From NCBI GenBank assembly GCA_008632985.1, contig QPGO01000052.1, positions 124,001 to 188,000 of the forward strand: 64,000 bases of DNA, read 5' to 3'. Numbering within the stretch: position 1 is the first letter of the stretch; the number at the start of each line of letters is the position of its first letter. The notes under the pieces were generated by a model, which was not told where the DNA came from, did not search any database, and was given only the letters and a program-made list of their open reading frames with translations. Below are positions 5,651-61,029 of this stretch, piece by piece. The translations under genes and the position numbers were made by a program. Source of the DNA: Psammoneis japonica. Taxonomy: Eukaryota.

Positions 5651-5660
5651 ACAACCGAGT

Positions 5661-6285: not shown

Positions 6286-6359
6286 CGCCTAAAACTACCC
6301 CGATCCAATGGCTCCGTCAACCCTGGGGCCCAAAAAAGTATCTACACTTTATCCTACAT

Positions 6360-8200: not shown

Positions 8201-9200
8201 TCATTTTGTTTTGGGTTTTTGCATGTCGAGAGTTCTCTTTTGCTCCCCTCTTGTTGGGTCGTCCAGTCAGACACCCTGACTGAAAGCTTTCGTGCACCAC
8301 TCTCATGCAAAAATTTCACTCAACTGTCCCACTGATCTTTTTAGCCAGGGATCTTACAGGCAAGAACAATGCAGAGGCCTTGAAGGCCGTTGCGTGCTCT
8401 TCAACATTTCATTGCTTGCCGCAGCAACTGTGTGATCATTCAGGGTGGTCTCCTGTGTCTGTTTCTTGACAGCTGCTCTTCATCGTCAAACCCAACACAG
8501 CTGCATCAAGGGAGTGCAACCTTTCAGCTTTAGATTTCTTGCAAGTCAAGAGTTTCCCTTTTGCTCCCCTCTTGTCAGGTCATTCAATTGGGTGCCCAAA
8601 TTGAAAGCTTCTGCGTGCTGTCCTCATGCAACAACTTCACCCAGCAACCTTTCCAATCTTTTTAGCAAGGAATCTCATGGGTGAGAACAGAACGGAGGCT
8701 TTGGAAGTCACACTCTGCAACATTTGATTGTGCGCCACAGCAACTTTGTGATCCTGGGTGGTCTTCTGTGTCTGTTTCTCAGCTCTGTGACCTTTCATGT
8801 CTTTTGTCTCACTGCAGCAACTGTGTGATTTGGGGTGGTCTCTTGTTTCTGTTTTTTGACAGTTCTTCATCCTCAAACCCAGTGCAGCTGCATCATGGAA
8901 GTGCAGCCCTCCAGTTTTTGGATTTCTTGCAAGTTGAGAGTTTCCCTTTTGCTCTTCTCTTGTCAGGTCTTTCAGTTGGGTGCCCAAACCAAAGCTTCCG
9001 CACACTGCTCTCATGCAACAATTTCATCCAGCGACCTTTCTAATCTTTTTGGCAAGGGATCTTGCAGGTGAGAACAGAGTGGAGGCTTTAGAAGTCACAC
9101 TCTTCAATGTTTCATTGCTCGCCACAGCGGCTTTGTGGTTCTGGGTGGTCTTCTGCATCTGATTCTCAGCTCTGCAACCTTTGATGTCTTTCATCTCTTT
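8201..9200. repeat. Degenerate three-copy tandem repeat (periods about 320 and 388 bp)
   Basis: gca.gtc/tg/aagag...ttttgctc..ctcttgt recurs at about 8221, 8541 and 8929. Confidence 0.85.
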
Positions 9201-9499
9201 GGATTGTGTTGGAAGAACATGTGTGCAAGTCAATCAAGATTTGTTCAAAGGTTTGCCATGTGCTGCTCCAGATGTCAGAGGGTGTGGCAAATGGCGTTGA
9301 GGGTGGAATTGATCTTTTGCCATGTCACTTCATCTGAGACAGCAATTGCCATTTTTGGTGATCTCTGAGAGAGCCAAAAAGAAGCAATGCCATAGCAAAG
9401 AGGCTGGAGACCATGGCACCCTTGCTTTCTGCGGCAGCACTGAGATGTGTTCCCAGAGCACATGAGTCAGATTTCTGTCCCATCACATTTTGAAGCCAT

Positions 9500-10560
9500 G
9501 GTCAGGCGACTCTTAATGAAACATCAAGCGGCGCCACCTGGCAATGTGGAAAAATCAGAACATGCAGGGGGGCAGGCGATGGCACCTGCAATGGCTTTGA
9601 ATGTTCTTGGAATGAGATGCAACATGTTCTGTGCACAAACCAGAAACTGCAGTGGGCAAAGTCATGGGGTTTTTCAAGGAGATTCATTTGCCAATTTCCC
9701 CACAACACTGAGCACCAGGATGTTGCTTTCACATGCTTCTCTGAACTTCAGAAACAACTTCTGTAAAAGCCAAAATGTGTTTGTTGTAGCAGCATCACAC
9801 TGTCAAGCTCCACAGCATGTCCAGCCTTTAAGCTGTTGTCAGCAGGTCAAAAAAACCTGCAAGAAACAGTGCATGGATGTGTTGCTTGCATGCAGGGTGT
9901 CAGCTTTCATTTCCCACCCCAGCGGCATCCATCATTTCCACATGTTTTGTTTTCCTGGAAAGCTGGCCACTCATGGCAGCACAACAATGTGTCAAATCAT
10001 TTGCCACAACAAGATGGTCGACATTCCCAGAGCACATTTGCTAGATTCCCATCCCAGCACCACATGCTTTGGAGCCACGGTTGGTTGATTCTCAATGAAA
10101 TGTCAAAAGGTGATGCATGGTGATGTTGAAAAATCAGGAAATGTGTGGAACCACTGCTGTGATGCCTGCAATTGCTTTGCATTTGTTTTTGAAGCAAGTT
10201 GCAACATCTTCAGTGCACACACTCCGTGGAAGCTGCAACAGGCAAAATTGTGGTCCCTGAAGGAGACTCATTTGCTGCTTTCTTTGCATCACCAAGCTCC
10301 AGAACACTGCTTTCTGCATGCTTCTGGGTTTCTCTTTGAAAATGTCTTCCACAAACCTCAAAATGTGCCTGTCATTGCAGTGCTGTGATGCCAAGCTTCA
10401 CAGCTTGCCTTGCCTTCCAGCAGCTGTCAGTGGGTCAAAAAAACCTGCAAAGGTGGTGTGCTGCTCACAGGGTGTGAGCTTTTGTTTGCCCAACCCAGCG
10501 CTGCTGTTGTCTCCACATTTTTCATTTCCCTTGCAAGCTGGGCACCTGTGACAGTGTGAC
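9500..10560. repeat. Degenerate direct duplication, period about 585 bp
   Basis: gaaaaatcag at about 9549 and 10128; ggtcaaaaaaacctgcaa at about 9845 and 10433. Confidence 0.7.
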
Positions 10561-13500
10561 AATTTGTCAAAATCATTTCTCTCAATGAGACAGCCAATGT
10601 TTGCTCAACTCTCAGCACAGATTTCCCAAGTGAGAAAATTGCTGTGTTTGGTGAAGAGATGTTCTGCACCAGAGGCAGCCTGCCACTGATGTGTTCTTCC
10701 TGTCTGAGCAAAAAAGAAATTCCATCCAAAGTCAGCAGCATCTGAAAAAAGCTGACAAAGGCTCAGATGTTCATGCCAAAATGATGCACAGGCAAAGGGA
10801 GTGCAGTGCCATGCAGCCTGCGAGAATTGCAAGGTGAAACAACACATCTTTGTGCAAGGCAACCAGGTCCTCAAGCTCATCCACCTGTTTCACCCATTGC
10901 CCTGCACACTGCCAGGACCATGCGGTGCTCAAGCCAATGGTGTGAGCCAAAGTGCAGAGTCTAGCGGCACCAAGTGTCCATGTCTGTCCAACCCACTGTG
11001 GTTGTCTTCCATGCTGCAAAGAACTGCACTCTTGCTTCTGGCACTCTTTCAAATGCAGTTGCATGTTTTTTGTTGCCAGAGTTGAAAAGAAAGCCACACA
11101 CATCACAAGCACTCAATGCAACAACTCGTTGACAGCATGTCACAGGCAGCAGGACTGACTGGCTCTGATTTTTTTGCCGGCTTGTCTGTCTGTCTCAATG
11201 CCAACCACACTTGGGCTCTTTTCTCCTGCTTGCTTTGGGAGGAAGAAATCCATTGTTGGCATGGCTTCATTTGCACTGTCATTGCTGCTTGCAGATGAAG
11301 ATGACAGCATGAAGTCACCTCAAATTCTCTGATTCTTGGGAGCACAACAGTGTGCGTGCAAGCTGCTGAGGCAAAACATCATTGCAACAGTGTGGTGTTG
11401 TTGCCCCCTGCTCTCCATCTTTGCCACACTGGATGCAGTGGAAAAAAGTTGAGTGGGCAAGTGGCTGCACAGCAGAGTTGCACAGTGAACATGTGGCCAG
11501 TTGAAGCCAATGATTTAGAGTTTGTGAAAATGCCAAATGCACAAACAAGGGTTGGGGACACCTTGTTTTGGTCTGTGACTCCGGCACAGCACCAGAAAAT
11601 GAACAACAGCCAGCACAGCATGTGCAGCTGTGTTGTGTTTGCACCAGTGTGGATTTCTTGCAAGTGCCATCAAGTGGGTTTCAGCACCAACATTTGTGTC
11701 AGTAAAAAGTGCAGAAATTCTGGCTTGAGGCTGTTGCTGAAGACAGAGTTGCTGCTGCTGTGGCAGCACTCTTTGCCAACATCCAAAAGATGCTGTGGCC
11801 TCACTGCCATTTGCTCCAATGCAGCAAATCAAGAAATCCCACATTGGGTGCATTTCTTTCTCCTGGGCAAGTGTAAGAAGTGCTCACCTTGCTTTGCACC
11901 AGCACTCTTGAGCAGCAGACTGGGGCATGCCAAGTGCCAGCAACCATGCCCCAACGACAACAAAAGAAAACACTCAATTTTCTTCAAAGCACAAGGCACT
12001 TGACATGGGTGCTGCTGACTGTCCCAGCTGATCTCTCAATCCAGAAGCACAGAAAGGCACCAAGCTCAAAACTCACAGGTGCCCTGCAAGAATGTGAACA
12101 CCTGCTGGAGTGTTTCTCAAAGACCAGCTTGTGCTCCTTTGCTGTTGAAGTTGTTGGTGTGGAAGAACCAAAACTGGAGTTGGCACTCATGGTTGTTCTT
12201 GGAAAGAATGTCGCCTTGTGCAAGCACAGCTTTGCAGCAGATGAGCATCTAAAAATGCTGCAAAATCCTGACAAGGTGCTTGGCAGTTGTGGCAGCAATG
12301 TGAAGCCTGCTTTGAAGAGGCCAGCTGCAAGATTAAAGAAAGAGTGTGTCACAAGCAAGAGACTTGCACAAAGCATTTGGTCAAAGCCACTGGTTGTGTG
12401 AAAGACTTTCCAGGCAACAAAGCACACAATGACCAGCTGATGGAATTGGAAGACAAAGAAGAAAGCAATGATGAAGCACATTGTTTGGGACCTGACTTTG
12501 ACAGAGCAAGTGGGGCTGGTGCCAGACAGTTGTGTGCAAACCAAATGTGTCAGTGTGCTGCCAGCTCACAAGTTGCATGTTTTACATTTTCAAATCCTTC
12601 CAACCAACTTTGAAAAATAAAGCTTGAAAACAAACACAGCCTTTTGAGACAGATTGTCCATCATGCAAGACACTTCATCTTGTGTGTCACCCAAACATCA
12701 GCTCTCTAACATGCCAAACTTTTCACAGGGAACACATTGTGGTGTCCAGAGTCAAACATCCAACCGACACAAACAACAACGCAGTGGTTGTGTGAAAAAC
12801 AGCAAAGCAACAGCTTTGTGCCCATCAAATCTTCAACAACACAACTTCTGGGCTTGTTGCAAATCACTTCTCTCTGTGCAGATGGTGATGCTTCAAAGCT
12901 GCGACAGTTTTTGGAGGAAACCTGTGTTGCAAAAACCCTTCATTTGAGCTGCAAACACAAGTTGATGATTGCCAGCTGCACCACAGCTGGTGGACACATT
13001 GATGTTGTCTGCAGTGCAACCCTTGCAAGGGAGAAAAATGCACAAGAAGTGTTTTCTGAGCCTTTCTTTGGGAGTCTGGCTGGACAACAACCACCAGTTG
13101 TTGACAACCTGCACTGAGCTGCACATTGTAGAACATTTTCTTGTGGCAACTTGCATGCTTTGCTGGGCTTTAGACTCTGAACAGCCTTGACTGCTTCTGG
13201 GTGCTGCCCTGCTTTTAAAATTGCACATGGCCTGTTCCCACAAACAGCATTTTTGATGTTGACTGGCTGCTGTCCAAGTTCAAAAACCAAGAGGCTCTTC
13301 TTCTCCTGTTTTGTTGTCATCTGCCACAGAGTGCTCCTTGGCTTCTTCTGCATCAAGCACTTGCACTTTGTCTGCTTCTTGACAAAAATCTTTCTGAAGT
13401 TTTCTTGACAAGAATCTTTCTGAAGTTCTTCTTGTTTCTTCAATTTCCCAACCTGCTGTTGGCTCAGCAGCACTCAAATGTTTGAGCATTGTTTTTTTGG

Positions 13501-15199
13501 CTTTTTCAACAACAGATCTTGTTTTTTGACATGCCAAGACCCAGAAGGTCATGCCTTGTTCTGCTGCAAGAGCTCAGCCATTGTGCCCATTTTCACACTC
13601 CCAGCCACACAAGTGAAGGGGAAAGCCATGCAGCCAAGAATCTTTGGAGCATGTCAAGGGGTCAATCTGTTTCAACTGCCTTGTTGCCATGAGACGGTTG
13701 GTGTCATCACAAATCAACTTTGCTTCAAATCATGCAGTGCAGCATTTTTTCTGAAGCTGAGGAGCTCAAGTAAGAAGACCAGCACCACAACCCTCTTGCA
13801 CATTGTCAAGTGACTGGCACTGCAGTTTGTTGAAAGACATTTTGCAGAAATTGCAAGGCTGGCACATGTCTGTGAAAATGGAGCTGTGCAAACAAGGAGC
13901 TGTGTGAACTCTTTCATTGGCCCATGTTTTGCATTGCACAACATGATCATCTCTGGGAGTGCATCAGCTGCGACAGCAGAGAAGGCAGGCAGCAGGTGAC
14001 AGAGGGCAGGGTTGCAGAATTTTTCTTGCACATGTCTTGTGTGCCATTTTGCACATGCAGCACATTTCTTGCCAAAGCAGGCATTGCTGTTTGGACAAAA
14101 AATTCCATGCAAAAACATCTTGCTTTCTCTTCCTGAAGCAAAACAGTGACCCCATTTCTGGGTGACCCCAAAGCCATTGCACAAAATCTCACACAAAACA
14201 AACACCAGATTTTGAACACAACTTCAAAAAACAACACACCGCAGCACCACTGCAATTGCTTTTGTTGTTTGCAGTTTGTCATTTCCTTGTTGGGCTCACC
14301 TCTGCACCAGAAGGGCAGACAACTCAAAGCAGTGCCATTGGGTGCACAGTGGACCAGCTTGAGCTGCTTGCCAGCACATGACAAGCCTGGCAGCAATGCC
14401 CCAACTTGGTGCAAGGAAGTTTGGAGTCAGCAAGCATCAACTCAAACTCAAACATTGGTTTGGATGAGCACAACACTGGCAACATTGCAAGTCAGTGTCT
14501 CCATTGTTGCACCAGCAATGTTGTCAGTGGACATTTTGAGCACTGAACAGGCATTGTTGCCAGTGGCTGTCTTGAGCATTGTGCTGGCAACATTGTTGGC
14601 GGTTGCCTCAATGGTGCTGCATGTTGTGCTGTCATTGTCATTGTGGTGGGTGCCTTGAGCATCACAAACAGCAGTGTTGCTGACCAATTGAGCACATGGT
14701 TGTCAGGCAGTTGCTCCACCTTTGGCATGGATGCATGCGGGGTTTGTGGCCCCTTGTGAAGATCAATGCCAAAAGTCCCAAGAACAATGTGAGTCATCAT
14801 TGGCTTGTTTGGAGCATGGATGGTGCAATCAGGCAGCACAGCCAGCCTCACCATCACAATGCAGAGCTCTCTGATTTGACTCCCTTGAAAACCAGTGGTT
14901 GGATCAAGAAGTTGCCCAGCGTTCCACTGAGCAGACCCCCATTTGAAAGGATCTGTTGCACCTTTTCTGGGTGCTTTGTAGAGAATGTGCAAAGAGCAGC
15001 CATCTTGTTCTATGATGCACAATTAACTTTTCTGATGAGGGACAATGTGCCAACCTGCAGTGCTGCAGTTTGGAGGGTGTCAGTGCTCTGAGACAAGACA
15101 ACAGCAGGTCTTGCTGGTGCTGATCTGGTTGCCACGACACCACCAGAGGGGATTCTCATTTTCCCCAATTTTTAGAAATGCTGGTGTGAGCGGCAGGGG

Positions 15200-15793
15200 T
15201 GTGTTGGAACATCTGGATCACAGGGACCACAAGAAACCTGGGTTCTCTGAGGAAAAGATGCTTTAGCTCCAAAATGTGGTGAACCAAGTGAAGCCACTGT
15301 TTGCTGAAGATTTTTCTCTGTTGCCAACCTTCCATCACCATTTTTGTCTCACACTTTGGAGTGAATCATTTGGCTCACTTGGCTCATTTGATTTGTCACC
15401 TGCTGCTGTTGTCATTTTTGAGTTTGGAGTTTGTGCTGACAACTTCAGGGCAACCTGACAAGTGCCACAGGAAGCCCAGCAGGGCCCCCTTTTGGCAACA
15501 TCAATTTTCTGGTTCGATGTCACCTGGAGGTTGTCAGTGCAAACTTTAAACTCACAAAATGACAACAACAGCTGTCCAGTGATGATGCTGAACAACATGT
15601 CAAGTGACAAACCAAATTGCTCACTCTAAAAAAGGAGGTGAAAGCAGAGGCAAGGGGTTGGCGACAGAGGAAATTCCCTGCCAGAGACCAGTCACTTGAG
15701 TCAACCACATCAGGAGTCAAAGCATCTTTTCCTCAATGGGCCCAGTGCAGGTTCTTTGCAATCCCTGTCCCCGTGACACAGGTGTTCCAACAT
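15200..15793. repeat. Degenerate inverted repeat (arms of about 260 bp, spacer of about 60 bp)
   Basis: 15201-15457 (tgttggaaca...gaggaaaagatgcttt...gttgtcatttttgagttt...ctgacaac) matches the reverse complement of 15518-15793. Confidence 0.8.
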
Positions 15794-17127
15794 TTTTTGC
15801 TGAACAGCTTAACAAAGCCCACTTGCCCCACTTTTGCTCACCTGAAAAGTGCTTGCATGTGCTTGAAGAAACCTCCTGTGCAAAGCAGGTTGATTGTGCT
15901 TTTTGCTGAAATGACATGAGGCAGGTGGGAGTGATGCACAGACTGCACTGCATTCTTGGGTGGAAATCCAGCAGCTGCAAGCAATGAATCTACTTGATTT
16001 TTCTTGCAAAATCACCAAAGTCCACCAGCAAGCATCTTGAGCCTTGCCTTGGGTGATGGCATCATTTCAGTCCTTTCATGATCTCATGTGATGGGCTGCT
16101 TGGCAAAGAAGCCAAGGCAGCACTCTGGTTGACAGCTGCATGGCTCTGGGAGCAAGCAGCAGAAGCCACCCTCTGAAGCATGTGGTTTTGCAAATGCAAG
16201 CACAAGCACTGCAGTTGTCAAAGCCACTCACATGTGCCTCTGAGGGTCCCACACATGCCCTCATCCCAGCTCAGCTCCTGGCACCCAAACAGGGAGCCGC
16301 TCTGCCCCTCTACAAGAATTGCCTCGCCAAGTCAAAAAATGACAAAAGCACACAGGTTTCTGCATGAATTTGGCACAAAACGAGTGCAAAGCTGCCCTCT
16401 GGGCACCACAGAAAAAAAACCAGCACCTTTGATCACTTCATTGTTGCTGCACTCTTCTTTTCATCATTCAACTGAGCTGTTGTTGCCATGACATTGCATG
16501 CCTCCACATCATCTGTCAGTGCTGAGAGATTGCGCTGCCAGAAACAACTCAACTTTCATTGGCTGCTGTTCAGTGCCCTCAAGGGGAGGTGACACTGGGC
16601 TTGAAGGTGGAACATGGCAAAACTGTCAGCATCATGCTGCCATCACCAAGTGAGTGCAACATGACTCCAGCTCTTCTTGGAGCAAAAGAGTTGATGCCCA
16701 TGAAGGAAAAACCAAAACAAAAAGTGGCAAACAAACAGCTCAGTCAATGTGACCACTTGTTGGAGTGGCCAACCAGTGGCAACAGTCACAGCAGCTCTTC
16801 TTGTCAAGCTTGGAAGCTCAATTTGTCCTCATCACATTGTCTTCTCTTCAAAAGTGAAGCTGAGAGATTGCTGGAGCTTGAAGATCTTGAGTTTTGTGGC
16901 AAGAGAAGAAGCAAATTTGCTTTTGGCAGAAGGCACTCCAGTCATTCAACATGTGAGACTGCCATGAGATTTGGCCACTGGCACTGCACAGGAAGCCTGG
17001 TGGGATTTTCTTTTGGCGACATTGACTTGCCAGCTCAACATTCACTCTAAAGAGTTGTTTGCTCATGTTGAGTGCACACCTGTCCATCAGTCCATCAGAA
17101 GATCATAAGATCATTGATGTCTGCACC

Positions 17128-18790: not shown

Positions 18791-21149
18791 ACGAATTCAA
18801 ATGGGATGTGCATGGCACATTGGTTGTGCACTTCCTCAGAATCTGCAGCATCAGCAACCACAAGTGAGTGCAGTCCCTTGGGTGTCACCACAACATGCTG
18901 CTGGGAGCACAGCATGCATTGGCGCCCATGTTCCATGTGGTGCCAACTGAAATGCAGCATCACCAACAGGGGTGAGGGCAAACTGTCCCTGTGCCATGTC
19001 ACCCACAAGCACAGGTGTTGCCATCCCAAAGCTCCGGCGGTCTCATTGCCATGACCAGGCAAGCAGCAATGTGGTGCATGACTTGTGTGATGCCCTCGTT
19101 GGCATTGTCTTGGGGGTGTGACAGTGCATTGTGTGTGCCACAGGCATGTCATGACTCGACGTCGCCATGACTCACCCATGAAGGGCAGCCGGGTTGTGTT
19201 GGAGCTGTCCCTGTGATGGGGCTGCAAAGTCTGCCATGGAATCTGCACAGGCCCCATGGCAGCCATGGGTCATTTGCTCCAGCATTTTTATGATGATCCT
19301 GGCAATTGTGTGTGACCAGTGGCGGTGGTGGTCAATCTGAGGTGCTGGCTGTGCTTTCAGAGGTTGTTGCACTCCTTGCTGTCCTCCCACTGGAGGCACC
19401 ACATTTTTTTTTCACTGGTGCCTGAGGCGGTGGCAGCATGTTGCCCACTGGCAGAGGTTGCTGTGCACTGCCAGCAGTGCAGCATCATTTTGACCTTGCG
19501 AATTTGCTTTCTGTCCTGGCGGAGGCTGTCCTGCCTCTGCATTTGGTGCTGCTTGGTCACTCATCTTCCTGCAAGTGAAGCACACAGTGCCAGTGCAATG
19601 GCAAAGGCATCCTCAGTGCATCAACAGCAATGGAACTGTCCAGCTGGTTGTTGTTGCTTTGCTCCTCTTTGGAATGAGAGGAAGCAACACAAGCACTTTG
19701 CTCGACAACTTGCACAAGAAGCGCCGCGTTCAAATGGTTTGGCAGTTGGAATGACTCCAACGGTCGGAGGGTCATTTCACCTTTGTTGAACTTTGCGAGG
19801 TTGGTGCAATGGACATCAAAGTGTCAACCAACTGTTGTGACTGAAATCGATTCCTTGAGGTCATGGTCTGCCTGTGACTCGCAAAGCACGGGAAAAACAC
19901 CACGAGTGAGATTTCCCACACGATTTTCTGTTTAAATTTTGCCCCAGAAATCTGCCCAGCCCCCCCCCCCCCTGTGCTGCATTTGTTTTCTTGTTGTGGG
20001 CAGGACAAGGGCAGGAGTCTCTAGCTAGATGGCAGAGAGAGTCAGGTCATGTCCGTCACTCTCTACCGGCAGGGCCCTGCACTCTGGCACCGGCATTTAG
20101 AGGGCAACAACATCCACAGCACCGGCATGCTTTCTTGCACCGCATCTGCCGGCACTCGCACAGTGCTCTCTACTCTACTCTCTGCCAGCAGCTGGGAGCA
20201 CCGGTGCCGGTGCGGCAGCAGCCACCGGCAGAGCAGAGCTCCGGCACTGTGCTCTTAGTCCGCGCCGTCACTGAAGACCAGTGACCAGTTTGTGTCTGAT
20301 CTTAAATGCCTTTTTGTAACATGCTTCATCACATGTGAAGATGTCCTGCCATTCCTGCAGCACTTGCACCTGAATCTGAACAAAAAGCATTGCTGTGACA
20401 GTTCACTGCCATGCCACCAACAGTGCTCTCCATTTGTTCTGATGCAACAAATGAGTGTAGCCAGAAAACATGCATCAGTGTGTGATGCCAAGGCATCACA
20501 TGAAATGTGTTGAGCACTGAATGACAATGCAAGAGACAACAACATGTCTTGCTTTAACCACGAAACAAAAGCTTGCTTGCATCTCTTTTGCCCCCCTTCC
20601 ACAATTCCAAGCACAGCTCACAGTTGGAATGTCTCACACAGCAACAACAACAGCAACCACATGAATGCAGTCAAATTGTTGCAGAGGAAAAATTGGCAAT
20701 GACAGCAACTACAACATTGAAATAAAAAAAAATGCCACTGGAAAATGGTGGAGGACATCACCTGCCATGGTGGCTCTGCAACAATGGCAAATGCAACAAT
20801 GCTGTTGTGGCTGTTGGCATCACCACCCTTGTGGTGTGTGGTGGGTGCACATCATGAAAAACATGTGCATCTGCACACCATGCAAAAAATTCCAATCTAA
20901 TCTATTCTGGCAAACAAAGAGTTAAGATGGCACACAGTTCTCACACCACCAATTTCCAGTTGCCAGAATTGTCCACAACTGCAGAACTTGTGTGTGAAGT
21001 TCACCACACACACAGCTGATCATTGGGCAAACCTGACATGGTTGTTGGATGAGACATGCTAGAGTGGCCAAAGGTTAACAACAAGATGCCATTTAAATGC
21101 ACAGAAGCCACTGCAGAAACCTCCATCTGTTTTCAAGATCCAGAGCCAC

Positions 21150-21840
21150 TGTTTTCAGAAAGCAATGGAATTTTAAAGATCTCAGATGCCAAGCATGTGC
21201 CAGCATGCCTTGAGGACACAATGCAGGGAGCAACAGGACTTGACAGCAACTGGAAAGTGAAGCTGCTCAGTTTGTTGAAAAAGTGTGAGTCCTTGTTTGA
21301 TGGCATGTCAGGTGAATGGAAAGGGGGTCCTCACCACACCCAGCTTAAAGAGGATCATGCTGAGCCATGTTGCTGACAACAGACATCCTTGCAAAGCCCC
21401 AAGGGGATGTGAAGTGATGCCAAGAGAAAGGAAGTGGAGTGCATTTGTGAAATTCTCATCACTGGATGCACAACCAGCTGTGTCTGCAGTGTGCCGCTTC
21501 ATCATTTTCCTTGCCAAAGCAAGATTTTCTGCTGGCATGGTTTCTTGGTGATTTCTGGGAGCTCAACAATGGGGTCAAAAGATTGACCCACCCAATTCCT
21601 CACATCCAGGACATGCTGCATGAGCTTGAAGGCTTTGTGTGGTGGGTGACATCATTGGATCTCCTCAATGCTGGATGCCACCACATTTGACTTGTTGATG
21701 GTGGCAGCCAAAAGATGTGCATGCTTGTCTGCCCATGAGGAAGGTGGTGCAAGACACGCAGGTCCTGCAAATGGGCTCATGCAATGACTCACCCAACATT
21801 CTCTAGGAAAAGATGTCATGGCCATGGAAAGCTTAGAGAG
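21150..21840 (+). mobile_element. Decayed Ty3/Gypsy reverse transcriptase fragment
   Basis: DAKHV...KLLSLLKKCESLFDGMSGEW and DFWELNNGVKRLTHPIPHIQDMLHELEGF..VTSLDL.NAGCHHI correspond to Gypsy RT DFRELNK.IKRKPYPIP.I.D.L..LEGF.YATSLDLNMGYYHI. Confidence 0.85.
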
Positions 21841-25169: not shown

Positions 25170-25885
25170 GATCAAAGTTCCAAAACATGAGAGGATGGAG
25201 GAGGTTCCAACCCTGGGAGCAACCCCAGTGTTTGCTGAGGATGTCAGCGGGGTTGCAGGAACCTTCAAGAAGTCGAACTTGAGGAAACCAGAGGCAATTG
25301 CCTCACACACATGATGGAACAAGAGGGCGGTGTGTCGCTTGTGTAACTTGGAGTGGGGGATGGTGGCACTGTCCACAACTGACTTGTTGTCCCCAAACAT
25401 GCAACATGTGTTGTGGATTGGGACAACAAGGTGATGCAATGTGATGCACAGATCAATGATCTGTTGTTCAACACACATCCCAGCAGCAACAAACAACTCA
25501 GATCCATGAGTTGCAGTCTCAACTGCAGCTTGTTTCTTGAAGAACCAATCAGCTGGAAACTTGTTGAGGAAATGAAAAATGATGCCTGTGACAGAGCATC
25601 CAGTGAGCATGCAATGGAGCAAGCTTGCATCAACACAATGGGTCATGGTGACAAAGTTGCCAAGAGGGCTGCGCATGTCTTTGGGAATCAGTTGCTCCAC
25701 ATCACCATGTGCGGTTTGAGCCCAGTCATGCACAGGCTTAGAAAGGTCCAAACAGTCGTGTTCCTTGGCATGCAATTGCAGGGCACCATGTTGAATCTTG
25801 CACAAGAATCCACAGACATGTTTGGTGCAATCCAAACAGCCTTGACGGGGTGCAGCATGGAAGCTGGAGAGGGACATGATGGTTG
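25170..25885 (-). mobile_element. Decayed Ty1/Copia RT C-terminus and RNase H
   Basis: SSFHAAPRQGCLD...THCVDASL.H...TGCSVTG...DWFFKKQAAVETATHGSE.FVAA...MFGDNKSVVDS..IPHSKLHKRH...CEAIAS...NPADILSKHWG. Confidence 0.92.
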
Positions 25886-26499: not shown

Positions 26500-28290
26500 G
26501 CTCACTGCTGTTCCCTGGTGATCCATGATACAACCCCTGCTTCCTGCTGACCCAAGAGTGAACCAATCCAATCACAATGAGGGTGAGGAGGACAACCCCG
26601 AACAAAACAATTCCACCCTGGCCCAAAATGAAAACTCTCAAGAAGACCATGGCCCATCTGGAAACAACTCTGATGCTGCTCCAGTGACTGGTGCTCCAAA
26701 GGACAATCAGAGCTCTTGGAACACAGAAACCTCCACCTCAAACCCACCCCCCAGGAGATGGTTCAGCAACTCATGCTGGCGGTTCAGGCTGCACCCAGGA
26801 CCCACTGACACAGGTGCATGCTCATCATCAAGTTCATTGCCAAGAAGGACAGGAGTGAGGCTAGAAAATGCCATCAGGATGTCCTGGCAGAGAACTGCTC
26901 CAGGAAGTGGACACATCACACATGCCATGCCCATGAAGAGAGGGCTTGAACAAGAAGCCACTGACAAAACCACAAGAGCCACCCAAGAATGATGCACAGA
27001 TGAGGGAGCACTTTCACAAGTGCTGTGTCACCCAAAAGGAGGTGGAGGCTTTTCACAACAACTTCATTAGAAGCAACAAGTCCCACAACACCATCATGGA
27101 GGAGGTTGACCACTTCTTCCAGGACAACGATGTCAGACTGTACCCTGGCTCAGTGCCACTTCCACAGGAGCTCTCCAAGCTGGGTTGGCTGCTTTGTTCC
27201 TTTGAGGACCACAACCGTGAAGCCCACAAGGTTGTTTTCCAGGAAGCCGTGGGCCAGGAGGCAGGCTTTAGATGGAGAAATGTCAATGTGCAGGAACCAG
27301 GCCAGAGGCGGGACATGAAGACAAACAAAGTCTGTGCTTTCGAAGCCAAAGCTGAAGCCAATTCCAAAAAGGAACACCAAGGCAGGAAGGCTCTGCAGCG
27401 TGTTTGCTCCTCAAAAGCAAAAGATAGATTCCCTTCAGGCCAATGCTGCCATTTCGTTCCAAGCTGTAGAAACATCTTCAATGACTGGTCAAAATGGGGT
27501 GCACAGATGCTGCGAGCTGGGTGAGACACTTTTGTCAGGATGATGAGAAGCAATGACTGCTGCCAGGAATCAATGGACCAGATCTTTGAACTTGGCTGCA
27601 AATCTGAAAGTCAGCCAAACAGCAAATCCTTGTGTGAGGCAACAATGCAGATGGATTCCAACAAGCACCCAGGAGAGAAACTTTTCCCAGTCATCAACAA
27701 GCACAAGAAAATGCCGGGATGCACAAAATTCAACTTTTTGCCCAAGCTGTCCAACAAAGCAACAGGAAGAGAATCACCAGTCTCCTGCCACTCTTAAAGC
27801 ACCACCACTCAGATGAGCAACACCATCTGAACTTCATGACTGCTGCCAACAAGCTGGCAGACTCTCTCATCTTTGATCCTTCCAATGGCGCAGCAGCAGC
27901 AACTGAGGAAGACCTCACCCCAGCTGAGTTGCTTGAAGGAGACAAGGATCTTTAATTCACAAACTTCACAGACAGATCCAAGCCTGGGGCAAGCAACAAA
28001 CCCAAGCTGCCTGAACAACCAGCCCCCAAGATGCATTGAAGCCAATGTGATTTCTGCCCGGATGTCACCAACAAATCTGTGGCCACAATGGGCTCAAATT
28101 GCCCATTGGAACCAGGCCTCATCAACTTAATTCACCAGCTTCAATCAACGCAAAGCACACCCACCTTAGCTGCAGATGAACCAGAACAGATGCAAACACA
28201 GACAGCTGAGATGGAAGCCACCATCAGGAACCTTCAAGTTGCAGACAGCTTCATGTTTTTCTCCCTCACAGCCAGGCAGTCTCTGAGCTC
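26500..28290 (+). mobile_element. Probable decayed ORF1 of a diatom-type non-LTR (LINE) retrotransposon
   Basis: LGWLLCS...GFRWRNV...VCAFE...CSSKAKDRFPSGQCCHFVP and SLCEATMQMDSNKHPGEKLFPVINK resemble diatom LINE ORF1 blocks (GWLLYS / GLRWR / FP.G.RMRFVP). Recognised from memory only; no ORF2 seen. Confidence 0.55.
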
Positions 28291-29959
28291 TTGAGTCCCC
28301 CCTCCTTTGCAGCCATGCAGGCTCTGAACTCTTTCCTCTCCTCCTCCATCCCTTTCTTGGCCAAAGGCACCTCTTCACTTGATGTGCTCAAGATGCTCAA
28401 AAATGAAAAAAAAACATTGTCAAGCAACTTGTCTTCCTTCTCTGCAACCAAGCAATGCTGCAACAGGTTTCCTCCTTTGCACTTGCCATCATTTGTCATC
28501 ATTTAAAAGCCACCCTTCCTCAGCTCATGCCTGCAATGGTGTTGTTTCTTTGGCATGCACAGGAAAGTCAGTGACTGTGCTGCGTGCTGGTCCTGTGCAC
28601 ACCAAAAGTGAGAAAGATGGGTGACTCTCTTTTGTCAAGACCAAATGGTTCCACCAAATGGCTTGCCCTCCCAAATTTCTTCATGGTCATCCTTGAAATC
28701 TCAGCTCTGCCAATCCTCTTGGGTGGTGAGATCATTGCTCTCTGAAAAGGTGTGCTTGCACATTGGGTTTGTCATCTCCAAAAAAGGGAGCCAAGCAGCA
28801 TGTCTCATGGGACAGGGAACAAATTGTTGTTTCTTGTTGACCACTCCAGAGCATGCTCCAGTTTTCAGCTGTTGTGGTCAGCGTGTGCAGTCAACACCAG
28901 CCACATGCAGCATGCTGAGTTTTGTGCTTTGCTTGTGCACGTGGAATGATTTGTAGAAAGGACATGCAAATGGCAGAGTTGCTGGGACCAATCATTTCTC
29001 TCCTTTTAGTTTGCTGCACTGTGCAAGCATGCATCATGGCAGCACAGGGGGGCCTGTGGATCAACAACTCAGGCCATTGAGGACACAAAGATGATGACAC
29101 ATGCAGGCACAGCAATGCAGGCACAGCATGCACATGTGCACACATGATGACATGCAGACAATGTCAGAGCCAAGAAACTTAAATGCAGCTGATTCAAGGA
29201 TGAACAATCAGCTCTTGGCAAATTTTTAAACAGCTCATGCTTTGTTCATGTTGTTTTGAATGCCTCTCTTGAGTTCCCCCAAACACTTGGAACAGATCCA
29301 CTGCCCACCAGGGCTGCAACACCTTCCATGCAATGTGTGCTGATCAACCTTCAAATTCAAAATGCCAATTTTTGAATTTACCACAGCTGTCACATTCAAC
29401 AAGCAAACCACTGTTTTTTGCCAAAAATGCACTGATTGTGGTTGGACAAGGCACAACTTCCCAGGAAATGCCAACAGCTGGCATTTGACCGGCTGCAGAT
29501 GACATGTCCAGAGTTGCCAAGCTGAACATGATGCATGGCCATGATCATCATCATCAGTGGACTCTTTGTTGTTTTGCAAATGGACAAAAGTTGGCTCATT
29601 GTTGAAATTTATTTGGCAAGCACATGTGATGATGCATCTGGTTTTTTTCAAAACTTGTGCAAATTCTGAATGAAGCCAGCTGTGGGCCAAATCAACACAG
29701 CCTCATTGCAGCCCATGGTGCAAATCAACAAGAGAATTTCCACATTTCCTGCTCACACCACTCCATTTTCTAGAGACAAACCAGCCTCACAACAACTTTC
29801 ACAAAATGCAGCTTTGGCACCCTCTGCTGTTTCCCCATGTCATCACCTGACAGTGCACCAGGCACAGTGGTGTTGCTCCCACAAGTGCCCAAGGTTGTGA
29901 TGTCAGCCACACCAACAACAAATCAACCAATCATGAATGAGCAGGTTGAGCCACATGAA

Positions 29960-30230
29960 CTCTGCTGAAATGTCTGGAGAAGAAGGCATTGTCAAAAAGA
30001 GAGTGCTTGACATGTGAGCTCAGGAACTTGCCAGAGCTGATGCTGACAGCCCAATGCACAAGCTGAATGTTCTGCACTTTTTTGCCAGTGTGTGAAGTGC
30101 ACACCCAGTCATTGTGTCTGTGCAGTGCAGGCTGGCTCCCGCTGTGTCATGGCAGGGCAAAATGACACATGTGTCTTGACATTGGCAGTGGACTTCCCAG
30201 GCAATGGCCAAACATGAAGATCAAGCCGCA
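29960..30230 (+). mobile_element. Gypsy-type gag fragment, copy 1 (heavily decayed)
   Basis: gagctcaggaac...atgctgacagccc...gcacttttttgc is homologous to 31180-31460. Confidence 0.5.
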
Positions 30231-31149
30231 GCACAGCTGTTGGAACATTCTCAAGATTTGCTCAAGAACAGCAGCACCCATGAGCTTGCTGATTTTTTCA
30301 GTTTGAACACTTGCAAGTTTAGCCTTCATGTCATTGCTTTTTCTTTGGAGTCTGCAACATGCTTTGATCAGGGAACAGGATGGGGGGTGTTGGCACACCA
30401 AGAGCACAGAGATCCACATCTTGGACCAGCAGATCAAGTCCATGAGATGACTCTTCTCACTCATCTCACAGACATGCAGTTGCCATGGCCACAGCTGGCT
30501 TCTTGTGTGTCTGACACCCCAGTTCCACAGTTTGAGCAATTTGAGGGCCTGGGACCAACTGACACACTGACTCCAGCTGCTGACAGTTCTTGCTTTTGCT
30601 GCACACTCAAATGCATTTTCATGTGAGCTGTCCTTGCCGCACATTTGTGATTCCACTTTTTCTGTTCACAGCCCAAATGTGTGCCTGCTGCAGAGTCCAT
30701 TGTCCTTTCTTTGAATTTTCTTTTGTCTGACCCCAAGGTGACACCAAAGCAGCTTGTCACATCAAACCACTTTGCAGCTTCTTGTGAAGCATGATTTCAC
30801 TGCTTTGGGCCATGGTGGTCAGGGACACCACCCCCTGACCATGCCAGGTGCACACAACTTGTGTTGTTGCAACTGGAAATGAGATGCACTTGGGCTGCTT
30901 TTCCACTGCTTTTTGGCTGGCAGTTTGAACTCAGGTGGCTCATCATCACCAGCAGGCATCAACTGATCAACAATTGACAAGCACTCACTCAACACTCACC
31001 TTCATCACAGAATCCTTGTCTTTTCTTGGTGTTTTTTGGCATGAATTGACCTCTGAAGCTGCAGGATTCTTGTCTGCCAACTCCCTTCTTTTGCACACAT
31101 TCATGCAAGTGTGCCAGGTTTCAACGCCACAGTTGATGAACTGACCAAT

Positions 31150-31460
31150 CATGAAGAAGTGGAGTGAGCTGCCAATTCCTTTGCAACATCTGGAGAAGAG
31201 AAGGCACTGTCAAAAGGTGAGTTTGACATTTGAGCTCAGGAACCCTCCAGCCAATGCTGACAGTCCTGTGCTTGAACTGAGTTTTCAGCACTTTTCTGCA
31301 GGTGCATGTGAAGAGCACCTGTTGTTCCTGTGCAATGTGCAAACCATGTTGTGGCAGGGTAAAACATTCTTGCCCTTTGTCTGGAGAAGCATCAGGAGCC
31401 TGTGCACCAGCTGCTTGAAAGCAGCACCTGGACCATGTTTGAGATGATGCATCTAAAGAA
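31150..31460 (+). mobile_element. Gypsy-type gag fragment, copy 2
   Basis: FELRNPPANADSPVLELSFQHFSAGACEEHLLFL resembles diatom Gypsy gag FKLR.NP.DADSP.YE....F..GT.EEWL.F. Confidence 0.55.
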
Positions 31461-33432
31461 CACATTGAATGGAGACCAGTGCATCATTTGAGGTGTGCAT
31501 CAAGTTGAAGTTGCCAAAGACAAGTGGGAGGAAGGTCATGCCAAGCTTCTTCCAGGCAACAAAGCTGCAGAGCAAACAGCCCTTGGTGTTGGTGCCTGCA
31601 GCAGCAGCCGGTGGAGGTGCAGAACTTGAGGCACAAGACAACTTCATGCATGGAGCATCACAAACACATCATCCCAACATGCAAAAGATTGGAAATGCAC
31701 CAGGATGGAAGAAGAGAAAAAAGTCTCAACATGGACTGTTGTGGTGTCACAACCATCTGAGATTGCCTTGATCACAGCTTTCTAAAGATTGGCATGGTTT
31801 GGACAAATTGAAGAAGCTTCAGGAGCAGCCACAAAGAGAGAGCTTTGTCCACAATCAATCAAATCTGTTCAAGATCTTCAGTCAGTGCAGCTTTGGCGGT
31901 GACAAGGTCATGAACGCTGAGTTGTCACCAGCAGATGCAGCCCATTGCCAGTTGCAAGCAAGTGAGCTGCTGCAAAACTTTGAGAAACAAGGCTGATGAG
32001 CTTTTGCAAGGACAAGCAACGTGCACATTTGAAATCACACAAACAAGCTGTGCAAACATGGTGTGTGACTTTGACTCCAACAAATTGTTCACAGAGACCA
32101 CGCCAGCTTTCATGGCTCCGATTGCAGCAGATTTGATTGACCTTGAGTTCTTCCACAAGAGAAATGTGAGATGTCCAAAATGGTGTCAAGCTGACAACTG
32201 TTAAAACAGAGGCTCTTCCATGAGTTAAACATGGTTGTTGCTGACATGGTTTTTGGACCAGCAGATGGCAATGAGGACTGCCCTCCTCCCTGCAACAGCT
32301 CATCAACATGCCACACCATTTGTTGTTCCACACCTTGCTTCCAGGCTGTGGCTTTGTCAAGCAGCAGCTGCTTTTGCTCTGTTTCAAAGCTGCAAACTGT
32401 TTTGTGGTGTGTGATGGAATGATGAGTCTGCCCTCAAACTTGCAAGTCCATCCTCTGAACCAGGTTTGACAGGTGATGCAGCAAAAAGCTTCCAAAGAGA
32501 CAGCTTGCCCCACTTGCAGCAGCATGTGAGTGAAGCTGTGGGCAGAGAGCAGGGCACAGTTCCCAGCAGCTGGTGAGAGTGAGGAGCTGACAAAAGCTTG
32601 TGGCTGGCTGGGAGTGTCATGAGAGGGCCCATGGAAGAAATCTGGAGTGCTGCAAAAGGAGGCATCAGCAACAGCCAGATGGAGAGCTTGGCAAGCCCAA
32701 CAAAGCTGTGCAAAGGGCAGAGGTCACCAAAAGTGACAGCTCAGAGGAGCTCATGTTCAGAGAATTCTTAAGTTGCTGCTGTCAGATGATGGTGAGGGTG
32801 CACTCATTGAGTGTGTCACAGCAGGCCAGGAGGAGATGCCTCTTCCCTCATCTCAGTTTCTGTGTTGCATCTGAGTTCTGTTCAGGGTGCATTTTAAACA
32901 TCCCTTCCACTGAACCACTGTTTGTGTGAACCACAGCAACATTTTTTTATTTTGTCCATGGTGTGCTCCTGCATGGTGGTTGCACAGAGCCCATGTGCTT
33001 TTTCTCAACACCAGGAGTGCCCCCATGGCATTTTGTCTCTTGTTCAGATGAGTCAACACATGTTTGTCAAACACAAAAATGTCACAAGGACAGCCTGAGG
33101 ACATTTGAAGACAACTGGCTGTGTTTCTTGAAACAACAAAGATCAAACACAACAAAGTTCCAGCCTGCAGAGTCGCAAGTCAAATGCCAAGTGTGATTCA
33201 TGGATGATGCTTCCAGTCATCAATCTCTGCTTCTGGAAGAAATGTCCATTGAGTCTTCTGGCAACAGCAACCAGAGTGACACACAAAACCGTCAGGTCAA
33301 AATGCAATCTCCAGTCAATTGTGATTGTCATCCTCTGCACTGCATTGTGATGACATCCCATCCTGCAGTGATCTTCTGTGCTGCAATCCTGTCCTTGCAG
33401 TTGATCTTTTGTGTCAAATCCTCATCCAGCAT

Positions 33433-36400
33433 CATGTCTGATTCTGATGCCACTGCTCCCAGAAAGGATCTGGAAATGTTCAAGAAGTTTGCCGAGGCTT
33501 TTGCAGCCATGCAAGCATCCAACGCACATCCACCCATCCCAACCCCCATCCATGGTGAATTGCATCCCTCTTGTGGCATGTGCCTTGGTGGGGCTCTTCT
33601 CTTGATGACACTCTCAGCATTGCCATCCAAAGGCTGTCAAGTCCATCAAGCAATCCCTTTGTGAACAACTTGCTTCAGCAACTGTCTCAAAGTTCATCAG
33701 TCAAATCAAGCTGTCCAACGGTCCAAGCACCAAACTGGACAAGAAAGACTTTGTCAAAACCATCCAAGACCTTGTCAGTTGCACGGGCAAGAAATTTTCT
33801 GCCATTGAAAGAGGACGTCTGTCAGCAAGGTTGTTTGTCTGTTAGACTCCCTTCATGCCATCTCTGTCAGCAACCTTCTTGAGAAGGAGTGCAAGTCTTG
33901 TAATGCTGCTTCAGGTGACAAAGGCTGTGACAATTACAAGAAGGACAATGTCGGTCTCTCTCAACTCCAAGTCAAGTCTCAAATCACGGAAACGTCCTGC
34001 AAGAAGATCAAAGTCAAGTTCAACCACATCAAGGACTTCAAGGATCTTCCAGGGTCAGTGTTGTTTGTGATGGCTCTGGACACTTGCAATGCAAGTGCTC
34101 TTGTTGATGTCAAGTCCACCAAGGAGAAGCTCAAGGCACTGTTGCTCAAGTTCCACCCTGGCAAGGATTGCACTGAGCTTGTGGCCAAAGCTCTTCCTCT
34201 GGCCAAGATTGTGAAGATGGACTGTGTGCTGCTGGTTGACACAGGTTCTGCCATTTTAACCAAAGCATCCAAGACTTCATCCAAGTTCTTTAATCATCAA
34301 GCATTCTTGAAGATGGATGATGTTAAGAAGATGGAACACAAAAGTGTTGTCTCTGCAACCTGGCTAAAGTGCCAAACCACTCTGACTGCACAATTTCAGG
34401 GCCTGTTGGCCACATTGGCTGGATTGCCATGACCCATGACAAGCTCATCAGTGATGAAGACTGGCCTGCCTCAACAGCTAAACTCCCCGAGTCGAGCAAC
34501 ACTTCCATCAAGGACAAGCACTCACCAAGCATGCGTGTTCTGCATGTGAGAAAGAGCACATGGCAGTGCAGAGGGTGAAAGCAGATGAGTCCAAGAACAA
34601 CACAAAGAAGACAGACAGGGGCTCACCATCTCCAAAACCAAAACCTTCCAAGCCCACCTGGCATTTCGTGAACAAGGAACCCACCCTCACTGATGACAAA
34701 GGCATGCTCTGGAAATTGTGTGACAAGTGCATCAACAAGGAAACCAGTGAGATGGGCATGTGACAAGGCCATTCAAGTGCTGAACACACCAGCAAATTTT
34801 CACCCACCTCCAGTGCCGCTGCTTCAGCAAATCTCTCTGCTGCAAATGATCCTTCTGTGGGTGTCCCATTTGGTCCTCCTGAGCAAACAACGGCTCCACC
34901 GATGGACAAGGACTCTGACGCCAATGAAGAACTTGTCCATTGTGGCATGTGGTGTGCTCCTGTTGACAATGCTGTGGGCAGCCCTCCTGTGGTCATTGCT
35001 TCTGCATCTTTCACTCCTGCTCCAATGGCCAAGAGGGAAACTGCCATGGCCACACCTGCTCCAATCTTGGTCAAGACAGTTGACCCCAAAGACACTGACA
35101 ATTTCCACAAGCTCTCCAATGCTCTGTCCTCTTTTAACTTGGAACTGCCAGCTCTTGAGTTGTTTTCAGCCTGCACACTGCATGAGAGATCAAGAATCCA
35201 GTTGTGTTTCATGACGCCACATCAAGTCACATGGAAGGACTGTCAGACAGCATGTTGGCTGACCTTGTGCATGAAGCAAGCAACCCAGCATCTTTTAATG
35301 ACACCTGTGAGAACTCACCTCCAAGCATCCACCATCACTGGTTTGACTTCTGTGATTCTGTGACCCTGAAACCACTTCTGTCATCAATGACTTGCCGGGC
35401 CCCTGCAGATCCCAGACAATCCACTCACGCTCAGAGGCATGGACTGCTTTCAAACTGCCTCCACCGGACACACCTGATGTCCACATTGAAGTTCCCAATG
35501 CACCTGATGACCCTCCAGTCCTCTGCCTGTGCTCCTGCAGAACTGCCACCAGGGTTAAAACCACCACCTGCCGTCACTCTGCCTGAACCTGCTCCTCCAA
35601 CAATGCCAACAACACCGGAATCTCCTCCTGCCACTTCTCCAGAGTTAGCTCCTCCACTGTGCTGTTCAAGTTGATCAAACAAGGGTCAGTTGCTGTCTGA
35701 AAGGTTCATGGACAAAGTCTTCTTTGCTCCAGCAAACTCAAAAGATGAGCTGCTTGGGACTGCAGCTCAGTTGGTGCATCTTGCTGCTCTGGACACCTGC
35801 ATTGATTTGCAGACCTGAAACTTTGATGATCCCAGGGTTTGCGCAAAGGGTTTGTGCAACTGCAAAGAAACACAAGGACCCTGATGTGCCATCCCTGCAT
35901 GAAGCTGTGTGCAGCCACAGGGCCAACAAATGGGTCCATGAAGATTGAGATGAATGCGCTGCTCCACTCGTGCATGGGAAATGGTGCCAAGGACTGATGA
36001 CATGAATGCATTGCCTGGCACATGGGCTTTCTGGCTTAAAAGACTTTCTGATGGTGCACCCTTGAAGCACAAAGCCCAGTGTTGTGTTCATGGTGATTTG
36101 CAGATGTGCAAGGTGTTGATTGTTTTAAGACCTGTGCGTCATGCAATGGTCATTAATTTGGCTTCTCCTCACAATGGTGCTCAAAGAAGGTTGGACCACT
36201 CATCAAATTGACTGTGTTTCCAAGCTGATGTCAAGGAGAAAGTCTGTGTGGAGCCTCCTGAGAGTTTTCAGCAGAAATCAGGTGCTGACTTGGCACCAAA
36301 ATTGTTGAAAGACCTGCATGGACTCTGCCAGTCTCCCAAGTGCTTCTGTGAAAAGCTGCACCATGGATTGATTGAACAAGGATGGATTCAGTCTGCTGTT

Positions 36401-37540
36401 GACCCTTGCATTTGTTTCAAGAAGGGCATGTTGTGCATGGCATGTGTTGACAATGACTTGTTCACCGGAGTGTCATCTGTAGAACTTGAAGCTGAGATTG
36501 CCAAATTGGGTGTTTCCAATGATGAGCAATGCCATGCATTCAACCTGCATGATGCAGGCAAAGTCGGCAACTTTTTTGGCATCAAGAAGATCCAGAAACT
36601 CAAGGATGGCTGCTTTCTGCCAACCCAACCTGGCCCAATTGAGAAAGTGCTGCATGCCACCCAGACAGAAAACTGCAACAGAGCTCCTGCTCCCACACTT
36701 CCTGCACCTGCTGGCAGTGGTTCTGAAGGCCCATCATTCGATGAACCTTGTGGCAACTGTCGGCCCATGGTCGGCATGTTGACACATCTGGCATCCAACA
36801 GCCACCTGGACATTGCCTGTACCACCCACCAAGTTGCTCAGTTCTCCTTTGCTCCCAAGGCCTCCCATGCTGTTGAAATCAAGCACATTCTTTGGCACTT
36901 GAAGGACACTGCTGACAAGGGTCTCATCCGAGCACCCACTGCAGATCATTGGCTTGATTGTCATGTTGTTGCTGATTTTGCAGGACTCTTTGGCATTGAA
37001 GATGGACAAAACCACACTTCTGTCAAGTCACACACCAGTTGTGTTGTTTGTTGTGGCAGATGTCCCATCATCTGGGTGTCCAAGCTGCAGACCCTGGCGG
37101 CACTTTCTGGGATGGAAGCCAAGCATGTTGCACTCTCCCAAGCAATGTGCGATCTCACCCCCCTTTGCAAGATCTTGAAGGAAATTAACACACACATCTT
37201 TGCACAACCGGATGCTCACAACAAGGCAGCTGCCCACTCCGAGGCCTTCCTGCAGGCCAACGACAGCACCGATTCCTCACCCATCAATGCTGCCAACCTG
37301 TCAGCATCTGTTGTGCATGAAGACAATGCTGCTTGCCCCCAGCTTGCTTGCATGCCTAAATTGTCCCCATGAACCAAGCCCATCGGCATTCCATGCCACT
37401 GGTTTTGCACTGGGGTTGAGGCTTTGGAGATCAAGATTGAGCCTGTCAGCTCTGCTGCACAGCTTGTCTGCCATTTTGCTAAAGGATTGGCCACTGATGT
37501 GTTCTGAATTGGTCGTAAAGCCCTCATGGGCTGGTGGCTG
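33433..37540 (+). mobile_element. Decayed Ty1/Copia (CoDi-like) element: gag, Pro-rich linker, RT and RNase H; protease and integrase not seen; no LTR recognised
   Basis: Gag knuckle WKLCDKC...HSSAEH (about 34710-34790); KDPDVPSLHEA; MNALPGTWAF.LKRLSDG...KHKAQCCVHGDLQ; LHGLCQSP; QSAVDPCI; ACVDNDL; CHVVADFAG; WVSKLQTLAALSGMEAKHVALSQAM; VHEDNAAC; ends RKALMGW. Confidence 0.93.
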
Positions 37541-37549
37541 TCACCGCGT

Positions 37550-60947: not shown

Positions 60948-61029
60948 TCGAATGCTTTGGGCGATTGTGACATACACTGGAAGTGCTTGCTGCTACCAGT
61001 AAGGCTTGTATCTTGCATCTTCTAAAAAA

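Follow-up and report, generated by a model that had tools for sequence, protein, structure and literature searches.

The RIP process of filamentous fungi (repeat-induced point mutation) turns CpA into TpA, thereby enriching TA in the DNA that it affects. Enzymes of the APOBEC family change C to T at TC or CC, and the ADAR enzymes, which belong to animals, have a loose neighbour preference and favour a 3' G. Very-short-patch repair in enterobacteria has a T-to-C bias in a defined context, and this bias depletes CTAG. Here we analyse 64,000 nucleotides of Psammoneis japonica (assembly GCA_008632985.1, contig QPGO01000052.1, positions 124,001 to 188,000 of the forward strand; this whole stretch is called the window below), in which TA has been lost from three blocks and the TAs that survive are strongly biased in their sequence context. 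These remaining TAs are probably, for the most part, relics of a mutational process that turns TpA into CpA or TpG across transposon-derived and repeated blocks. To our knowledge, a block-limited loss of TpA of about 15-fold that follows a half-site rule is not among the known signatures of genome defence or mutation.

Results

Surviving TAs are biased in sequence context

The GC content is about 0.48 along the whole window, which has N gaps at 7274-8200 and 40687-40953, and the counts of TA and CG per kb drop abruptly in three stretches. In these blocks, called A, B and C (Table 1), TA depletion is about 15-fold, and in two of the three it is accompanied by loss of CG. Outside the blocks, the observed/expected ratio (o/e) is 0.60 for TA and 0.96 for CG. 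The borders are sharp, spanning 250 bases or less; the left edge of block A is masked by the first N gap, and its right edge lies at about 37480-37535. Dinucleotides other than TA, CG and CA/TG are near normal in block A, and when its trinucleotides are compared with the expectation from dinucleotide frequencies, only those containing TA deviate (ATA 0.25, GTA 0.57, CTA 1.17, TTA 1.69).

All statistics for block A were taken over 8201-37450 (29,250 bases, 131 TAs), and the outside reference comprises 26,272 bases with 1030 TAs. The initial annotation of this region had claimed that its few remaining TAs are mostly preceded by a pyrimidine (Y) and followed by a purine (R). This observation is confirmed: 87 of the 131 TAs in block A are YTAR, with 22 RTAR, 19 YTAY and 3 RTAY, versus 213 YTAR, 232 RTAR, 290 YTAY and 295 RTAY among the 1030 outside (chi-square 135.4, p = 3.7e-29). 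Block A also departs from its own first-order Markov expectation of 42.0 YTAR, 32.6 RTAR, 31.7 YTAY and 24.7 RTAY (chi-square 75.9, p = 2e-16), and the context ranking is unchanged when 355 kb from 78 metagenomic Copia loci serve as another baseline. All of the example words that had been quoted are present, with their TAs at 8342, 8663, 11516, 15173, 13216, 12250, 15627, 15547 and 24505, and the statement that TAC/TAT and GTA/ATA are nearly absent is roughly right, TAY making up 22 and RTA 25 of the 131. The comparison of NTAN words inside and outside the blocks, which had been suggested as a check, rejects survival in proportion to background frequencies (deviance of uniform survival 214.7, 15 degrees of freedom).

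The bias is already present in the less depleted sub-block of block A, at 20000-21250, where 12 TAs are YTAR, 3 RTAR, 5 YTAY and none RTAY. Blocks B and C are biased in the same direction, but with only 12 and 7 TAs they provide a weak replication. The pattern is not produced by low TA alone, since the genic stretch at 43001-46000 has a TA o/e of 0.37 without any context bias (YTAR 20, RTAR 18, YTAY 13, RTAY 22).

To compare individual contexts, we divided the number of TAs by that of all pyrimidine-purine steps between the same flanking bases, so that differences in flank abundance cancel out. The ratio of block A to outside is 1.01 for TTAA, 0.36 for CTAA/TTAG, 0.12 for CTAG, 0.11 for GTAA/TTAC and 0.07 for CTAC/GTAG, and it is lowest for ATAA/TTAT (0.06), ATAG/CTAT (0.05), GTAC (0.015), ATAC/GTAT (0.007) and ATAT (0). 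Depletion of TTAA is slight or absent, according to the baseline used. The contexts of CG in block A span a six-fold range only, from 0.05 at ACGT to 0.30 at CCGG.

A half-site model of TA survival

We modelled the survival of a TA as the product of two per-strand factors, and let each factor depend only on which base lies 5' of the T in its own strand. This half-site model has four parameters and fits all 16 NTAN contexts (deviance 8.7, 12 degrees of freedom, p = 0.72). With the outside baseline, the survival factor of a strand comes to 0.069 for a preceding A, 0.134 for G, 0.384 for C and 0.977 for T, and the bootstrap intervals show no overlap between A or G, C, and T. With the 78 Copia loci as baseline, the corresponding values are 0.054, 0.12, 0.41 and 0.74 (deviance 14.1, p = 0.30). 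The rule is therefore a half-site, V-T-A (V being A, C or G), or T-A-B on the other strand (B being C, G or T), with the rate order A > G > C >> T.

The earlier proposal of a preferred RTAY-type target, with YTAR and A-tract contexts protected, had the ranking right, in that RTAY is the most depleted class and YTAR and T-tract/A-tract contexts are spared, but the palindromic RTAY site itself is unneeded. Two independent half-sites predict 4.5 RTAY in block A, where 3 are seen, so RTAY is the class in which both half-sites are susceptible. The base at position -2 also matters: T is found there at 148 of 262 surviving half-sites, versus 25% outside. TT-TA is the best protected half-site, which matches the A-tract protection seen earlier. 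Block A is symmetric between strands, with 3492 CA and 3278 TG in total and a balance of the two in 13 of 15 two-kb blocks.

The direction of change is from TA to CA or TG

A dead Copia-type polymerase remnant lies at the right end of block A, and its reading frame stops where the block does. Its 386-residue open reading frame (ORF) has no Tyr at all, whereas homologues have 3.7% Tyr in the same columns, and all nine columns with Tyr in at least three of five homologues are now His (5) or Cys (4). In tblastn alignments with seven homologues, all 13 sites with Tyr in at least three are now Cys (7) or His (6); of the 22 sites with Tyr in at least two, none keeps Tyr and 18 have His or Cys. Because Tyr codons are TAY, these losses mean that TA became CA or TG after insertion. 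Arg is likewise absent from 15 conserved Arg columns, having been replaced by His, Gln, Cys, Trp, Lys or a stop. The integrase/gag half of a Copia element was not found upstream of 35519, and no pair of long terminal repeats was found.

Block A is bracketed by an inverted duplication, 90-3590 (+) and 41551-37699 (-), whose arms are about 65% identical and of which only one is depleted in TA. When block B is aligned with 90-2821, the 25 aligned TAs of arm 1 correspond to 11 TG, 7 CA, 2 TA and 5 other dinucleotides. Nine aligned YTAY sites became TG and none became CA, as the half-site model predicts; taken with the RTAR sites discussed below, the product pattern gives the model partial support. 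Block B has almost no TA left, yet its CG is lower than that of the paralogue by only about 30%; the TA process is therefore either separate from the loss of CG or several-fold faster.

The three-copy tandem repeat at the start of block A has two homologous sites that show TA, CA and TG across the copies, which suggests TA as their ancestral state; at another site, TA is common to two copies and the third has TG. Mass balance leads to the same direction. For each 5' context, the loss of NTA and NCG in block A relative to outside equals the gain of NCA and NTG within about 10%, and the GC content of the blocks is consistent with TA and CG conversions alone. Together these comparisons show that the direction of change is TA to CA/TG.

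The signature is also found elsewhere. Two of 80 metagenomic loci that encode relatives of the Copia remnant share it: locus L037 (positions 1-1789) has o/e values of 0.04 for TA, 0.20 for CG and 1.67 for CA/TG and an almost intact polymerase frame, and locus L036 (positions 1-1776) has 0.18 for TA and 0.10 for CG.

Table 1. Depleted blocks and associated features of the window (o/e, observed/expected ratio; positions are those of the window).
Feature	Position	Strand	Remarks
Arm 1, undepleted paralogue	90..3590	+	TA o/e 0.5, CG o/e 1.05; comparator for the fate of TAs; pairs with 41551-37699
Block A, depleted in TA and CG	8201..37535	.	TA o/e 0.07, CG o/e 0.12, CA/TG o/e 1.85, GC 0.48
Tandem repeat of about 330-390 bases, three copies	8201..9210	+	in block A
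Less depleted sub-block of block A	20000..21250	.	20 TAs, TA o/e 0.24
Second Copia RNase H-like fragment	25269..25631	-	in block A; tblastn E = 4e-7 to P0139
Dead Copia-type polymerase remnant (reverse transcriptase and RNase H)	35519..37534	+	one frame, in-frame stops
Transition zone, start of inverted arm 2	37540..38500	.	TA o/e 0.35, CG o/e 0.78
Block B	38501..42000	.	12 TAs, TA o/e 0.06; CG slightly reduced, 0.72; CA/TG 1.48; inverted paralogue of 90-2821
Block C	61001..63750	.	7 TAs, TA o/e 0.04, CG o/e 0.23, CA/TG 1.78

Read contigs

Short-read-like Logan contigs of a public run, X1, which is possibly the very sample behind the assembly of the window, cover 28001-37500 at a word depth of about 130-300 and carry the same TA- and CG-poor sequence. 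They differ from the window by about 0.7% (about 7-10 differences per kb), mostly by transitions; 37 of these differences are listed, with about 260 further ones, and the counts given here hold among those listed. Eleven of the 37 have CG in one allele, and a single one touches a TA (33901, a GTAA site). This rarity of polymorphic TAs fits the remaining TAs being in protected contexts. Among the roughly 33 events that the listed differences represent, four are tandem CA<->TG doublets (29910/11, 30686/7, 32123/4 and 33477/8), as would be expected of a short-lived TA or CG intermediate that is resolved to either side. The word depth of X1 is itself uneven, at about 130-155 in the block A contigs and about 61 at 45-47.6 kb (45216-47616), a difference of about two-fold that could arise if copies were collapsed, or if the haplotypes of the gene region were kept apart.

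The contigs of another run, X2, are transcript-like: they are joined across GT..AG splice sites at 45986/46124 and at 46839/46930, and one has a loose poly-A end at 47088. In the stretch compared, X2 matches only 37.3-38.7 kb and 42-48 kb and not blocks A or B, where lack of cover does not amount to silence.

Other features of the window

On both strands of block A together, the stop words TAA and TAG occur 135 and 80 times, versus 1495 for TGA. With TAA and TAG nearly gone, long spurious reading frames arise: block A has many ORFs of 150-390 codons, in all six frames, that are not genes, and gene finders are misled in such blocks. In a Pfam scan of the window's 136 ORFs of at least 110 residues, Copia reverse transcriptase was the only match within the depleted blocks. 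For the largest ORF in arm 1 of the inverted duplication (424-1380), a comparison with proteins of 174-557 residues gave no homologue at E <= 0.001, and tblastx of the two arms gave matches in all frames alike, with no coding frame assignable; both arms are thus possibly non-coding.

Two tandem repeat arrays (5659-6287 and 6352-7273) immediately precede the first N gap, in which block A has its hidden left edge; they have periods of about 200-215 and 328 bases, 91-100% identity and normal TA and CG content. Outside the blocks, a 528-residue ORF at 51553-53139 encodes pentatricopeptide repeats, and its named relatives, at about 30% identity, are all from diatoms (Leptocylindrus, Proboscia, Attheya, Thalassiosira, Amphora and Cyclotella), in keeping with a nuclear scaffold of a diatom or a near relative. 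A tandem pair of 2-oxoglutarate and Fe(II)-dependent (2OG-Fe(II)) oxygenase genes (PF13640) occupies 45385-47088 and about 49320-50905, with shared segments that are 84-85% identical; for the first gene, the X2 contig gives GT..AG introns at 45987-46123 and 46840-46929 and the poly-A end at 47088. We considered this pair, which stands beside a depleted block, as TET/JBP-like agents and rejected it, as PF13640 is a family of the prolyl-hydroxylase type and there was no TET/JBP match.

Discussion

The process that we propose would make A:T to G:C transitions at TpA over whole blocks of transposon-derived and repeated DNA, while the ordinary decay of CpG to TpG/CpA would run alongside it. The two strands would be hit independently, and the chance of a T-to-C change (which is A to G on the other strand) would be set by the base 5' of the T, falling from A through G to C and nearly vanishing where that base is T. 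Protection would increase further with a T at the second position upstream. A TA would then survive only if both of its half-sites are protected, which would make YTAR, and most of all TTAA and TTTAAA, over-represented and leave hardly any RTAY. The contexts of TA differ more than 100-fold in their ratios and those of CG only six-fold, which suggests recognition by a protein over spontaneous chemistry, and we infer a dedicated enzyme activity aimed at silent or repeated chromatin. Candidate routes would be deamination of the A in 5'-T-A-B, to be read as G, or a modified T in 5'-V-T-A that would pair wrongly with G. The initial annotation had hoped that the fingerprint could name the enzyme responsible, but, sharp as the pattern is, no enzyme is identifiable from it.

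Several observations weigh against the view that the remaining TAs are relics of such a process. No enzyme, modified base or gene behind it was seen within the window. The survival of TTAA varies with the baseline that stands in for the ancestral NTAN make-up of block A, from 1.0 with the outside baseline to 0.59 with the 78 Copia loci. Blocks B and C together have an excess of RTAR, with 7 seen and 2.7 predicted, and their log-likelihood gain over uniform survival is only 2.5, so few are the TAs there with which to replicate the rule. In the paralogous arms, aligned RTAR sites gave CA four times and TG four times, where the model predicts mostly CA, and the choice between His and Cys in the Copia remnant follows the 5' base in the predicted direction without being significant (6:3 vs 3:6). 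All five remaining TAs of L037 are TAC codons for Tyr, so that selection decides the survival of TA in this live element, while context does so in the dead copy in block A. Lastly, at two sites of the three-copy repeat a single copy carries TA where the other two carry TG, and those TAs could be new.

New TAs of this kind are what one would expect if all ancestral TAs had been removed regardless of context and the present ones had been made by an APOBEC-like C-to-T activity at YCA. The order T > C > G > A at -1 and the pyrimidine at -2 resemble APOBEC3 contexts, and TC/GA is slightly lower in block A than outside (0.96 vs 1.11). However, the abundance of the precursors (NCAN and NTGN) fails to predict the pattern (chi-square 184.5), and TCA is not depleted in block A, rising to 25.6 per 1000 from 18.2 outside. 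Nor does any of the 37 listed polymorphic differences create a TA. Some TAs are common to two copies of the repeat, some sites have all three of TA, CA and TG, and the bias is there already in the sub-block where depletion is less advanced. As this explanation needs two special processes where one suffices, we consider it unlikely. An artefact of sequencing or assembly, such as systematic miscalls at modified bases, is scarcely credible. The scaffold does have N gaps, but the X1 contigs, albeit possibly from the window's own source sample, carry the same TA- and CG-poor sequence with about 0.7% differences, the signature recurs in two metagenome contigs that belong to other records, and the amino-acid changes are coherent, from Tyr to His or Cys.

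It is also most improbable that the bias reflects the original make-up of the sequence, be it ancestral elements that were rich in YTAR or a block of foreign DNA with a composition of its own. While the dependence of TTAA survival on the baseline leaves room for such an origin, the flanking genome and the 78 Copia loci both have about 21% YTAR and about 29% RTAY, the Copia remnant has lost all of its conserved Tyr codons, block B is paralogous to a normally composed stretch of the same scaffold, and mass balance ties the composition of the block to that outside. Selection could act in either of two ways, by avoidance of TA and CG because of a nuclease or sensor, or by retention of functional TAs. 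The intact frame of L037, which keeps TAs only as Tyr codons, indicates that selection can shape survival in live elements, but block A is dead DNA, with its polymerase remnant interrupted by in-frame stops, its tandem repeats and no other Pfam match among the scanned ORFs of at least 110 residues. Its surviving TAs are not Tyr codons, TAY being the most depleted class, and a loss of about 15-fold is far above the selective avoidance of TA that is known; we therefore give selection very little credence as the cause of the pattern.

Among the known systems, fungal RIP resembles the present case in being transition hypermutation of sharply bounded transposon or repeat blocks that wrecks reading frames and depends on dinucleotide context. 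Its polarity is the opposite, however, because here TA is destroyed (o/e 0.07) and CA/TG is the sink (1.85). With regard to duplication, the borders of 250 bases or less include a right one at the end of the Copia remnant, and one arm of the inverted pair is depleted. The Pfam scan of ORFs of at least 110 residues found no cytosine methyltransferase of the RID/DNMT4 type in the window. One study states that many diatoms carry DNMT4 enzymes, related to fungal RID and of unknown function (PMC9998398), and these may serve as a lead, not as evidence. The decay of methylated CpG resembles the CG side of the pattern: blocks A and C have CG o/e values of 0.12 and 0.23 with an excess of TG/CA, mass balance holds, context dependence is mild, Arg codons are lost in the Copia remnant, and 11 of the 37 listed differences involve a CG, so that the loss of CG with gain of TG/CA looks like what methylation-driven decay would give. 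Such decay has no route from TA, though, and it cannot explain the TA loss, which in block B reaches 0.06 while CG is at 0.72.

The footprints of APOBEC3 enzymes share with block A the context-dependent transitions on retroelement DNA and a hierarchy of neighbours at -1 and -2. They differ in the net change at A:T, which is opposite; the Tyr-to-His replacements need T-to-C; DNA other than retroelements is affected here (the tandem repeat and block B); and TCA does not show the expected loss, as noted above. Hyperediting by ADAR would give the same net change of A to G, with T to C in the complement, but here the 5' T is obligatory, only TA is lost (AA o/e is 1.18), and TTAG/CTAA and CTAG are among the best survivors. 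Very-short-patch repair is an earlier example of a T-to-C bias by which a genome loses a word containing TA; that repair belongs to bacteria, works genome-wide and is confined to one pentanucleotide, whereas CTAG is among the less depleted words here (0.12-0.15). The TA pattern thus appears to match none of the known specificities of RIP, APOBEC or ADAR. Among the results listed in full-text searches of the literature, none described extreme block-wise depletion of TpA in a diatom or other genome, or TA-directed hypermutation of transposons, and a term search of PMC2806351 gave nothing relevant. This comparison suggests that the signature is a further form of repeat-directed hypermutation, undescribed so far.

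We put forward only tentatively, as a possibility that we ourselves doubt, that diatoms, or at least this lineage, have a RIP-like mutator of reversed polarity, which would act at the DNA level on silent or repeated chromatin and make A:T to G:C changes at TpA through the V-TA half-site, by deaminating adenine or by modifying thymine enzymatically. If so, Tyr codons and two of the three stop codons would be erased in transposons, and the adaptation of live transposon lineages, L037 among them, would have been to lose all TAs but those in essential Tyr codons. If an enzyme causes the pattern, the half-site rule predicts that it would attack TA after A, G and C, but not after T, and would do so on the two strands independently. 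A natural A:T to G:C activity on DNA would be of interest for genome defence, for the epigenetics of diatoms and for base editing.

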